Source of the DNA: Escherichia coli
Lineage (GTDB): Bacteria; Pseudomonadota; Gammaproteobacteria; Enterobacterales; Enterobacteriaceae
Direction: 5' to 3' (one strand)
Length of the DNA stretch: 3,487 nt
Assembly (NCBI RefSeq): GCF_003334335.1
Contig: NZ_QOWQ01000084.1
The notes beneath the pieces were generated by a model. The model saw only the letters and a program-made list of their open reading frames with translations. It was not told where the DNA came from and searched no databases. Positions within the stretch are counted from its first letter, which is position 1, and every line of letters starts with the position of its first letter. Shown here one piece after another: positions 1 through 3,220 of the stretch. The translations under genes and the position numbers were made by a program.

Positions 1-977
1 GTCAGAAATATACGGCCGGCAAGGTGTGGAGCTGAGCCGTTCACTGCTGTCGGGCTGGGTGGATGCATGCTGCCGGCAGTTGTCTCCGCTGGAAGAGGCG
101 CTTCATGGCTATGTGCTGACTGACGGTAAGCTCCATGCTGATGACACGCCTATCCCGGTGCTGTTGCCAGGCAATAAGAAAACGAAGACCGGGCGGTTAT
201 GGACCTACGTTCGTGACGACCGTAACGCCGGGTCAACGCTGGCGCCGGCGGTGTGGTTCGCTTACAGCCCGGACAGAAAAGGCATCCATCCGCAGACCCA
301 TCTTGCGGGGTTCAGTGGTGTACTGCAGGCGGATGCATACGCCGGGTTCAACGAGCTGTACCGGGATGGCCGGATAACGGAAGCCGCCTGTTGGGCTCAC
401 GCCCGCCGTAAAATCCACGATGTGCACGTTCGCACCCCGTCAGCCCTGACGGAGGAAGCGCTGAAACGGATCGGCGAACTGTACGCCATCGAGGCAGAGA
501 TAAGGGGAATGACGGCGGAGCAGCGCCTTGCCGAACGTCAGTTGAAAACGAAACCGCTGCTGAAATCCCTGGAAAGCTGGCTGCGTGAAAAGATGAAAAC
601 CCTGTCGCGACACTCAGAACTGGCGAAAGCGTTCGCATACGCCCTGAACCAGTGGCCGGCGCTGACGTACTATGCAGATGATGGCTGGGCTGAGACGGAC
701 AATAACATCGCTGAAAATGCGTTGCGGATGGTCAGTCTGGGCCGCAAAAACTACCTGTTCTTCGGTTCGGATCATGGAGGAGAGCGGGGAGCGCTGCTGT
801 ACAGCCTGATCGGGACGTGCAAACTGAACGGAGTGGAGCCAGAAAGCTACCTCCGCTATGTCCTTGACGTCATAGCCGACTGGCCGATAAACCGGGTCGG
901 CGAACTGCTCCCCTGGCGCGTAGCACTGCCGACTGAATAACACATCCCCGTCAATACGGTTCTTGCTGCACGCTTAC
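1..977 (+). mobile_element. IS66-family insertion sequence, right (3') end; inferred terminus near 977
   Basis: Transposase gene ends at 940. The minus-strand reading of 962-977 is 5'-GTAAGCGTGCAGCAAG, and IS66-family ends are recalled to begin 5'-GTAAGCG. The flanking minus-strand gene appears interrupted exactly here. The boundary is inferred and could be off by a few bp. Confidence 0.65.
2..940 (+). CDS. IS66-family transposase, C-terminal portion (5' end outside the window)
   Basis: Reading frame is open from position 2 with no upstream stop, so the gene is truncated by the window edge; stop TAA at 938-940. The C-terminal sequence ...[52 protein letters not shown]...ELLPW matches the conserved C-terminal signature I recall for IS66-family transposases. 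The ORF track's GTG at 26 is probably not the real start. Confidence 0.88.
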
Positions 978-1164
978 CCTTCTGTTGCTCACTCAGGGCA
1001 TGTAAATCATGCTCAAACCACGCCCCCTGAGCATCTGTCTGCAGAATCAACCGGCCATGACAGGAAAGGCAGAAACAATGCCGGATATTTCTGCTGAGCG
1101 CAGAGTCGGCACTGATAATGTGCTCACCCGGCGTGATCCCCAGCCCCGTTTTTATACCGTTCAT
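978..1164 (-). pseudogene. N-terminal fragment (~62 codons) of a second zinc-ribbon protein, paralogous to the 1161-1544 gene, apparently disrupted by the IS66 insertion
   Basis: ATG at 1164-1162 overlaps the TGA of the upstream gene (ATGA coupling). The product MNGIKTGLGITPGEHIISADSALSRNIRHCFCLSCHGRLILQTDAQGAWFEHDLHALSEQQK shares a C-x2-C-(14-15 residues)-WFEH motif with the upstream protein. The computed ORF (856-1164) continues into IS66 sequence, which is taken to be a fortuitous read-through. Confidence 0.45.
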
Positions 1165-1544
1165 TCTGCTACCCCCTCCTCACTGAAACGCCCGGTCTGG
1201 CAGTGTGTGCAGTACTGCTCCCCATAATAATCGTGGTGACATTGCCTGCAGTACCAGCTGGCTTTACGTACCACGGGTAAGGCATCCGGGACGAATTGCT
1301 GCAGACGTTTAATCAACCGTATTTCTCTGCGTTCCGGCCTGACATAAGGACATTGCTGCGCGTGCTCCGTCAGCCCGTCGTCAGTGTGTTCAAACCAGGG
1401 CCGTTCGGTGTCGTATTGCGGGTGGTATCTGAGTGCACTGCCGCAAAGGTGGCAGGTGTAGTGGGCATAAGGAGCAGTCTGTGCGGTACGGGCACCGATC
1501 AGACGTCCGTTGCCATCAAGTGCGAGAAAAGATTTTGCGTACAT
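1161..1544 (-). CDS. Small double zinc-ribbon protein (127 aa) with CoiA-N-terminal-like CxxC...WFEH motif
   Basis: ATG at 1544 with GAGGA about 10 nt upstream on the minus strand. N-terminal module YAKSFLALDGNGRLIGA...CHLCGSALRYHPQYDTERPWFEH resembles the N-terminal zinc ribbon of CoiA-like proteins (CPxC...HFAH). C-terminal module CRQCHHDYYGEQYCTHC is a second CxxC-x9-CxxC knuckle pair. No nuclease domain is present. Confidence 0.6.
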   Translation of the reverse strand: MYAKSFLALDGNGRLIGARTAQTAPYAHYTCHLCGSALRYHPQYDTERPWFEHTDDGLTEHAQQCPYVRPERREIRLIKRLQQFVPDALPVVRKASWYCRQCHHDYYGEQYCTHCQTGRFSEEGVAE

Positions 1545-1710: not shown

Positions 1711-2280
1711 TCAGCCACGACTGCAGCCAAAATTGCGCTCACCGGTGCCGTAAGCTTTGGTACTCTCCTTCGCCAGATAGTCAGCACGCTCCAGCACCTG
1801 CTGAAAGCCGGTGTCATCATCGCGTTCCAGCCACACCGCCGGCCTGACCGGAAAATGTGCCAGCGTGTCATAACGTCCGGCATCCACTCCCAGGGCACTG
1901 CACCACGCCTGTTTAATCATCCCGGCCAGTGATCCCGGAGCGCGGTAATCGCCGGCACGACACCAGGTATCCCGGTTGACCAGCAGCATCAGGTGATAGT
2001 GTTTTTTACCTTTGCACTCCCCAAACTCCCGGGCCCAGACGTAATGCAGGGTTGTGGGATGCACGCGTTTACCTTCCCGATGCTTACGTTTCTGGTAAGC
2101 GTCGATTCGGGCTTTCAGGGCATTGATGAAGCGGGATATCACAGCTGCGTCCGTTGCTGCCGGTACATCCGGGAGACGCAGGTCAACCCGCAATGCCGTC
2201 AGGCGGGGATGAACATTCAGTGCGTGCCGCACCGTCTCACGAATACGTTGCTGCCAGAAGGGGTTGTATTTGTAGGTCAT
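1711..2280 (-). CDS. HUH-motif rolling-circle Rep-like protein, YagK/YfjJ (Inovirus Gp2-like) family (189 aa)
   Basis: ATG at 2280 preceded by GGAGAT (revcomp of 2287-2292); stop TGA at 1711-1713. Product starts MTYKYNPFWQQRIRETVRHALNVHPRLTALRVDLRLPD, as I recall for YagK/YfjJ cryptic-prophage proteins. It contains HYHLMLL (HUH motif 2) and ADYLAKESTKAY (YxxK-type motif 3). The track's extension to 2316 lacks an ATG or RBS and covers the hairpin, so 2280 is the preferred start. Confidence 0.7.
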   Translation of the reverse strand: MTYKYNPFWQQRIRETVRHALNVHPRLTALRVDLRLPDVPAATDAAVISRFINALKARIDAYQKRKHREGKRVHPTTLHYVWAREFGECKGKKHYHLMLLVNRDTWCRAGDYRAPGSLAGMIKQAWCSALGVDAGRYDTLAHFPVRPAVWLERDDDTGFQQVLERADYLAKESTKAYGTGERNFGCSRG

Positions 2281-2289
2281 GGTTAAATC

Positions 2290-2308
2290 TCCGTATGGTT
2301 CATACGGA
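2290..2308 (-). promoter_or_regulatory. Perfect 8-bp inverted repeat (TCCGTATG-GTT-CATACGGA) overlapping the Shine-Dalgarno of the HUH-protein gene
   Basis: Read directly from the sequence. The 3' arm on the minus-strand mRNA contributes the GGA of the GGAG ribosome-binding site, 7-10 nt upstream of ATG 2280. Confidence 0.35.
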
Positions 2309-2412
2309 ATAACCACGTCGTAAAAAATGCGCAGAACCCCTGAGGTGACCTCCGGCAGGACACTGTCTCAGGCACTCTGTGATAACCCGAACGGTCATCG
2401 CCGGACTGACGA

Positions 2413-2441
2413 TTGAATTCCCGGCGTTGTTTTTTTAATGT
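2413..2441 (+). promoter_or_regulatory. Candidate sigma70 promoter for the small zinc-ribbon membrane protein gene
   Basis: TTGAAT (2413-2418), 17-bp spacer, TAATGT (2436-2441). Sits in an AT-rich tract with T7/A6 dyad symmetry, about 40 bp upstream of the SD. Confidence 0.3.
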
Positions 2442-2481
2442 AAAAAACAGGTTACGGATAAGGCGTGGAGAGGGAGCGATC

Positions 2482-2676
2482 GTGATATGCAAAAAGAAGT
2501 GCAGGGACTGTGGTAACGCAATTACTCATAATACAGTATGTTGCCCGTATTGTGGCGCTGTCGACCCCTTCGGTTATTACCGGAAGACCGATCGTCTGCT
2601 CTGTTTACTGACGTTACTGCTGCTGCTGATTCTGGTTACCGTTTCAGGCGTCAGTGTATTTGTACTGTTGCAGTAG
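2482..2676 (+). CDS. Small zinc-ribbon protein with C-terminal transmembrane helix (64 aa, GTG start)
   Basis: GTG at 2482 lies 5 nt after GGAGAGGGAG (2467-2476). Product MICKKKCRDCGNAITHNTVCCPYCGAVDPFGYYRKTDRLLCLLTLLLLLILVTVSGVSVFVLLQ has a CxxC-x10-CPYC zinc ribbon followed by a roughly 25-residue hydrophobic segment. Stop TAG at 2674-2676. The track's TTG at 2413 coincides with the predicted -35 box and is unlikely to be the start. Confidence 0.5.
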   Translation: MICKKKCRDCGNAITHNTVCCPYCGAVDPFGYYRKTDRLLCLLTLLLLLILVTVSGVSVFVLLQ

Positions 2677-2829: not shown

Positions 2830-3220
2830 TCAGCCCCGACAAATACGAGTCCCCTTCAGAAGATACAGGCCGGTAATGCCTGAACGCCTGCCCCTCTGTA
2901 CACCATTCCCTTTTGATTTCGAATTCTTTGTTGCCGTTATACTGCTTAATGTTCCCGATCTTCCGGTGCACAGATAACACCGGAGTCATCGTAGCGCGGA
3001 TTCAAGATTCAGGTGACATATTTCCAGACGGAAGCCGGCACGCGATCGTAAAGTTTGTTCATTGTCAGTTCTGCCAGCCGGTGATCGACCGCAGAGTTAA
3101 AGGCTTCCAGCTCCGCAGGGGTAAGTTTATAACGTGTGTGGGAAATCACTTTTTCCAGCGTCTCCCGGGATGAACAACGACGGAACTGCTCTGGTTTTAA
3201 CTTCCATTCGTCTCTCGTTA

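Follow-up and report, generated by a model that had tools for sequence, protein, structure and literature searches.

The small ORF described here is a genuine gene of an Escherichia coli genomic-island module, and it probably encodes a tail-anchored, cytoplasmic zinc-ribbon binding module whose expression would be weakened in the allele analysed. That allele lies in a window of 3,487 nucleotides (the whole stretch of DNA that was analysed; assembly GCF_003334335.1, contig NZ_QOWQ01000084.1), which is 100% identical over the region searched to a chromosomal island of E. coli strain G1/2. The start-region allele of the window recurs, with its context, in E. coli Nissle 1917. The features of the window are collected in Table 1.

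Table 1. Features of the window, with coordinates and strand.
Feature	Position	Strand	Remarks
IS66 transposase gene, 3' end	to 940		
Second DUF7828 zinc-ribbon gene, pseudogene	979..1164	-	Truncated by IS66 insertion
DUF7828 + Zn_ribbon_11 gene ("putative zinc ribbon protein"), 127 aa, intact	1161..1544	-	Part of the conserved module
YagK/YfjJ (inovirus Gp2) family gene, 189 aa	1711..2280	-	Divergent neighbour of the small ORF
Divergent intergenic region, 198 bp	2281..2478	.	Between the YagK/YfjJ-family gene and the small ORF; conserved
Candidate weak promoter of the small ORF	TTGAAT 2413-2418, 17 nt, TAATGT 2436-2441		Read by eye; 7/12, under the promoter-scan threshold
Shine-Dalgarno (SD)-like block GGAGAGGGAG	2467..2476	+	GAGGAGGGAG at the same site in ATG-type alleles; purine block kept in 11/11 copies
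ATC, relic of the family ATG start	2479..2481	+	PGAP start of WP_032218841.1
Small ORF from GTG, stop included	2482..2676	+	64-aa zinc-ribbon and transmembrane (TM) protein
Out-of-frame mini-ORF MQKEVQGLW, then stop (2514-2516)	2487..2516	+	Created by CGC to TGC at 2488 (Arg4 to Cys)
C4 zinc ribbon	2500..2553	+	Cys8/Cys11 in one knuckle, Cys22/Cys25 in the other (65-aa numbering); invariant loop I-T-H-N-T between
Juxtamembrane motif G-Y-Y-R-K-T-D-R	2572..2595	+	G, Y, Y, R, T, D, R invariant in the curated family alignment
C-terminal TM helix	2596..2664	+	Followed by only three residues (LLQ)
Hha/YmoA-family gene lacking its N-terminus, pseudogene here	3009..3188	-	Convergent with the small ORF

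The original prediction, made from the letters of the window, opened the frame at GTG 2482 behind an SD-like block, noted a competing ATG at 2487 in another frame, and described the product as a zinc knuckle tethered by a single TM helix. All of these sequence features are present as listed in Table 1. The GTG comes after the five bases CGATC that follow the SD-like block, and the frame encodes V/M-ICKKKCRDCGNAITHNTVCCPYCGAVDPFGYYRKTDRLLCLLTLLLLLILVTVSGVSVFVLLQ up to the stop codon at 2674-2676. RefSeq/PGAP entry WP_032218841.1 describes a 65-aa hypothetical protein that starts at ATC 2479. The length of the ORF is by itself no evidence of a gene, since chance ORFs of comparable size abound in the window; 66 ORFs of at least 20 aa were counted, and several are longer than the small ORF. 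An 87-aa form beginning at TTG 2413 was rejected because 8 of the 11 copies aligned below have a stop codon six codons ahead of the start.

The product, about 65 aa long, is predicted to consist of a lysine-rich N-terminal C4 ribbon, a GYYRxTDR linker and an inner-membrane tail anchor. Both CxxC knuckles, the four conserved cysteines and the β-hairpin expected of a C4 zinc ribbon are found in the sequence and the AF2 model (pLDDT 80), in which strands at residues 5-7 and 14-16 form the ribbon hairpin and a single long helix spans residues 33-64. Cys8, Cys11, Cys22 and Cys25 are invariant or nearly so out to remote relatives, where Cys21 is not kept. The best TM segment comprises residues 39-61 of the 64-aa form (Hessa sum -4.6, Kyte-Doolittle mean 2.8). 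Since seven Lys/Arg residues flank this segment on its N-terminal side and none on its C-terminal side, the ribbon is predicted to be cytoplasmic. Prediction thus gives the arrangement of a tail-anchored protein, a cytoplasmic N-terminal domain and a single TM helix at the extreme C-terminus, and in the family the helix is predicted to end 0-3 residues before the C-terminus. The knuckle and single helix that had been proposed are therefore supported by the conserved ligands, the TM and topology prediction and the AF2 model.

The pattern of substitution shows that the small ORF does code for a protein, one that belongs to a small enterobacterial family. Eleven copies from diverged island lineages, 81-100% identical in the small-ORF region, were aligned, and the frame is intact in nine of them. 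Over codons 2-38, which encode the ribbon and linker, dN/dS between lineages is 0.05-0.3, with Fisher p values across pairs of 7e-3 to 2e-7; in one pair, 9 of 23 synonymous sites had changed versus 3 of 88 non-synonymous sites (p = 2e-5). The Salmonella copy gives a dN/dS of 0.2. The claim that the frame is a gene holds, in that homologous copies conserve it and synonymous changes are in excess in codons 2-38. Across types, dN/dS in the codons of the TM helix is about 1 or above; the tail occurs in three diverged versions, in each of which 18-19 of 24 residues are strongly apolar and none is charged, and the other two reading frames of the tail DNA are not hydrophobic. The constraint is real but not strict because some copies have decayed, through a frameshift in strain 042 and in copy L012 and through loss of the ligand Cys25 in copy L006. 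Constraint of this kind is common for island genes. Copy L008, which has the ATC codon, is intact despite much divergence.

Divergence between the lineages is centred on the codons of the TM core (region 2596-2676), where nucleotide identity between types falls to 54-59%. The last ~20 nucleotides of the ORF are conserved again. The sequence after the stop codon is unrelated between types (38% identity), so the 3' end of the small ORF marks the boundary of the conserved module.

What might such a protein do? Because the ribbon, its loop and the linker are constrained, and the helix core drifts yet stays apolar, the ribbon appears to be the working surface of the protein and the helix a generic anchor. 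Most likely the ribbon is a membrane-tethered binding module that keeps a partner, either protein or nucleic acid, at the inner membrane, in which case the helix would not itself be a membrane-damaging effector. The co-inherited YagK/YfjJ and DUF7828 proteins are candidate partners. The same pattern of constraint could equally reflect a soluble domain that regulates a toxic helix.

By its gene neighbourhood, the small gene belongs to a conserved module of the CP4-type (P4-like) genomic islands of E. coli. In every locus inspected (12 E. coli loci and Salmonella), it diverges from a YagK/YfjJ gene and one or two DUF7828 genes, and it is usually followed by a convergent Hha-family gene and then by an AlpA-type regulator, a 200-aa hypothetical protein, YfjI and a YeeP-type GTPase. 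The module itself, as read from these loci, comprises the one or two DUF7828 genes and the YagK/YfjJ (Gp2-like) gene on one strand, the small gene diverging from them and, usually, the convergent Hha-family gene. The YagK/YfjJ-family protein matches PF11726 at 4e-48 and, weakly, REP_ORF2-G2P at 4e-5. Window positions 1-1164 take in the IS66 element and the DUF7828 gene that it cuts; this gene has an intact counterpart in strains 042, A33 and SY019 and in Salmonella, and intact 49-70 aa versions of the Hha/YmoA-family gene, which encodes a nucleoid-associated regulator, occur in other copies.

A further feature of the module lies in the 5' UTR of the YagK/YfjJ gene (positions 2278-2317, minus strand), where a hairpin of -19.5 kcal/mol (z = -4.4; none of 200 shuffles as stable) pairs the gene's own GGAG and its AUG at 2280. 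The first 60 nucleotides of the intergenic region are at least 95% identical across all lineages, and the stem is preserved in three copies that carry a 5-nt loop insertion. The hairpin looks like a translational control element. An Rfam scan of the window returned no credible RNA family.

Comparison of the copies indicates that the non-ATG start of the window allele is a derived ATG-to-ATC mutation in an ATG-initiated family. Seven of the 11 aligned copies, as well as a Salmonella copy that was read separately, have ATG at 2479; strain 042, ETEC4071 and the window have ATC. The numbers of 40-mers across the start site in 5426 complete E. coli genomes point the same way, with the common ATG/CGC allele at 2950 places versus 547 for ATC/CGC and 296 (in 262 genomes, including Nissle 1917) for the ATC/TGC allele of the window, whose share is thus 296 of about 6470 places. 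Copies of the ATG type open ATG GTG ATA CGC, with AGGAGG five bases upstream. The sequence ATACGC is found in 10 of the 11 aligned copies, so the out-of-frame ATG has no counterpart outside the window allele. The competing nine-codon ORF pointed out in the original prediction is indeed present in the window, but as an allele-specific by-product of one C-to-T change, and its absence from all 10 other aligned copies argues that it is not a conserved regulatory device. The odd start and the mini-ORF thus stem from two recent point mutations in the window allele and not from a conserved design.

Where translation begins in the window allele is a separate matter. Initiation relative to AUG was reported as 10-100% for GUG and 1-2% for AUC (bioRxiv 10.1101/063800). 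GTG 2482 is the likelier initiator than ATC 2479 because GUG outperforms AUC, the GTG lies five bases after GGGAG, and the region is unstructured (fold of 2445-2520, z = 0.08; 0.15 for the ATG allele). The GTG start first proposed is therefore the more credible one for this allele, although RefSeq/PGAP begins one codon earlier, at ATC 2479, and the start of the family as a whole is ATG. The most plausible reading of the ATC call in PGAP is that homology carried it over from other entries. The ATG at 2487, ten bases past the SD-like block, may divert ribosomes. In the mechanism that we favour, loss of the ATG leaves the window allele to initiate probably at GTG 2482, or else weakly at ATC 2479. 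The ATG loss and the out-of-frame ATG should each reduce output, and the neighbouring genes in this island copy have already been disrupted by IS66 and by truncation.

None of the three aligned ATC-start copies has AGGAGG; two have GGAGAGGGAG and strain 042 has GGCGAGGGAG in its place. The best GGAG in these copies lies five bases before the GTG and not before the old start. This change in the SD region could mean that the initiation site has shifted in compensation, or it could be simple linkage.

An alternative explanation for the gene is that it encodes a membrane-active small toxin or exclusion effector, in line with the toxin, effector, defence or exclusion role originally suggested. The helix would depolarize or perturb the inner membrane, perhaps within a type I-like toxin-antitoxin system, in abortive infection or in entry exclusion, and the ATG-to-ATC change and the decoy ATG would have been selected to damp a harmful product. 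We consider this alternative unlikely, even though the protein resembles type I toxins such as Hok, TisB, DinQ and ZorO in being small and single-helix, and such toxins are often encoded on mobile elements, as the small gene is on a mobile island. Weakly similar proteins of the same architecture occur on conjugative-plasmid or ICE-like contigs, the weakened start and frequent frameshifts would fit counter-selection of a costly product, and defence genes are known from the wider CP4-57 island family (AbpAB and RnlAB in K-12). Type I toxins, however, have short extensions around the helix (review PMC12648545), and a structured N-terminal domain of 38 aa is atypical of them. If the helix were the effector, it should be the conserved part, whereas here the conserved part is the 38-aa zinc domain and the helix core is free to drift, the reverse of that expectation. 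Type I toxins are also made from mRNAs whose 5' UTR, structured or processed, masks the ribosome-binding site, and they are paired with an antisense RNA. The initiation region of the small gene is open in both the window and ATG alleles, with no sequestering structure, and the only antisense promoter-like site that the scan turned up (2564-2535) has a usable -10 in the window allele alone. PADLOC-DB v2 HMMs matched no family in the small protein, the YagK/YfjJ protein or either zinc-ribbon protein, and the phage collection yielded one partial match, at the end of an unannotated 4.5-kb record. The conservation pattern, the open initiation region, the lack of a conserved antisense promoter in the scan, the PADLOC result and the large soluble domain together lower the toxin reading, and the suggested role is left unsupported.

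A second alternative concerns the window copy in particular. It may be a silent or dying relic that yields no functional protein, the loss of the ATG, the Arg4-to-Cys change and the new ATG having been neutral steps of pseudogenisation. For this copy the alternative has to be taken seriously because the surrounding module is already damaged, with one zinc-ribbon gene cut by IS66 and hha truncated; the ancestral ATG has been lost, other copies show frameshifts and a lost ligand, and the allele is a near-clonal minority of 262 genomes. Yet the frame is fully open with its four ligands and TM helix intact, an in-frame GTG, an efficient initiator, stands 5 nt after the SD-like block in an unstructured region, the ATC lineage is widespread (at least 843 places), and the ATC copy L008 has stayed intact through much divergence. 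We rate the relic reading slightly below the toxin reading, as a doubtful one.

A more speculative proposal, and a rather improbable one, is that the small anchor, the Rep/G2P-like YagK/YfjJ protein and the DUF7828 proteins form one undescribed module. It might serve to maintain the island, to exclude other elements or to interfere with phages by anchoring a replication initiator, island DNA or incoming DNA at the membrane, with start attenuation in some lineages reflecting the cost of the module. A last reading, that the frame arose by chance or is regulatory non-coding DNA and yields no protein in any strain, is very improbable. In its favour, the frame is short, many equally long ORFs arise by chance in the window, and no Pfam or NCBIfam family reaches threshold. 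Against it, the excess of synonymous changes is significant, the frame, cysteines and uncharged tail persist across E. coli lineages and Salmonella, and some profile matches among other small zinc-ribbon and TM proteins share STDPFG...R.DR.

Of the 5426 complete E. coli genomes, 3500 have at least one copy of the small gene, the median number of places per genome being two, and close relatives were found only in E. coli/Shigella and, sporadically, in Salmonella and Klebsiella. When 100,044 species-representative genomes were scanned with a peptide pattern, no relative could be confirmed. The sole match in a DNA-pattern scan of species representatives, with the exact motif, was a contig of a Paenibacillus tengchongensis assembly (L014, NZ_WACP01000054.1; 683 bp, coverage 0.59), which is probably assembly contamination. 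Since the scans of representatives confirmed no relative, the family was not seen outside the Enterobacteriaceae at their sensitivity. Plasmid records gave only eight matches, several of them to chromosome-sized records. A tblastn search of the yfjJ and yagK regions of K-12 (CP4-57 and CP4-6) found no counterpart, so ribosome-profiling data from K-12 are of no help. The literature search found no paper on the family and no expression, zinc-binding, localisation or interaction data for any member, and nothing on the gene in work on YfjJ/YagK, Nissle ribosome profiling or the supplements of the O157 Sakai small-gene study.

The gene was already annotated as hypothetical and its architecture is of a known kind; no member of the family has been studied. 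About two thirds of complete E. coli genomes, including that of the probiotic Nissle 1917, carry at least one copy of this unstudied gene, which sits in a conserved island module of four to five genes, all without an assigned function. Zinc goes unmentioned in a 2025 review of small membrane proteins in bacteria, and thus it appears that no small membrane protein with a zinc ribbon has been characterised. Any functional result, however modest, would therefore bring a new type of small membrane protein. There is also a lesson for annotation, namely that the start of the family is ATG, that ATC-start calls such as that of WP_032218841.1 appear to be propagated by homology, and that the unusual start region of the window is mutational and not designed. 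Taken as a whole, the finding is an ordinary small-gene case of modest interest.

Searches for relatives returned mostly the zinc-ribbon fold in general. All Pfam zinc-ribbon matches (Zn_ribbon_3, UPF0547 and zinc_ribbon families) fell below the Pfam gathering threshold, with best i-Evalues of 0.033-0.077, and the NCBIfam search gave a rubrerythrin-like match that scored 13 bits where the cut-off is 32. The PDB, searched by sequence and by fold, yielded generic zinc ribbons, including a reverse gyrase finger, and no informative homologue. The best matches to residues 5-29 were archaeal Rpo12/RpoP, ribosomal Zn-ribbon proteins and HVO_2753 (~1.7 Å rmsd over 23-25 residues); the strength of the PDB matches was 2e-4 or worse by sequence, with no Foldseek E value below 0.8, and the likeness is generic to the fold. 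Unlike the small protein, free-standing zinc-ribbon mini-proteins of this sort are soluble and have no TM helix.

Weak profile matches (E values of 1e-5 to 1e-3) were to other zinc-ribbon and helix proteins of 56-80 aa, some of which carry STDPFGxxRxxDR, a sequence akin to the juxtamembrane motif. Wherever the flanks are long enough for a judgement, these proteins are encoded on conjugative-plasmid or ICE-like contigs. Two of these, on metagenomic plasmid- or ICE-like contigs (L016, positions 5001-5219; L017, positions 5001-5237), are weakly similar zinc-ribbon and TM ORFs of 72-78 aa on the strand opposite to T4SS/tra genes, one between TraG_N and TraH and the other beside a PLD-family nuclease gene. 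Whether they are related to the E. coli family is uncertain (E values of 4e-5 to 2e-4).

The small protein was also compared with several known systems. The ZAS anti-sigma (zf-HC2) proteins are marked by HxxxCxxC in a domain of ~80 aa and are encoded beside an ECF sigma gene. An assignment to this group was rejected; the small protein has H17-x3-C21 and C22-x2-C25 in place of HxxxCxxC, its soluble part is only 38 aa, no zf-HC2 match was obtained, and none of the loci inspected has a sigma gene. The E. coli proteins of the ElaB/YqjD/YgaM type have the same overall plan as the small protein, with a cytoplasmic N-terminal domain and a single TM helix at the extreme C-terminus in an N-in orientation, although they are helical core-genome proteins of about 100 aa that have no zinc ribbon and are unrelated to it in sequence. 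Bacterial proteins of the zinc_ribbon_2, Zn_ribbon_3 and UPF0547 types and two PHROG families, all of them without an assigned function, share with the small protein an N-terminal CxxC-x10-CxxC that leads through a basic linker into a single TM helix. Both PHROG families, phrog_38187 and phrog_14275, are phage families, and residues 6-56 match them (E values of 8e-6 and 1e-4) over their N-terminal thirds only (positions 4-54 of 144 and 5-53 of 178). The two PHROG families continue with a domain after the helix, whereas the small protein ends at it. As the two phage families share the order of zinc ribbon and then helix, the architecture is a known one, of which the small protein would be the minimal, tail-anchored version.
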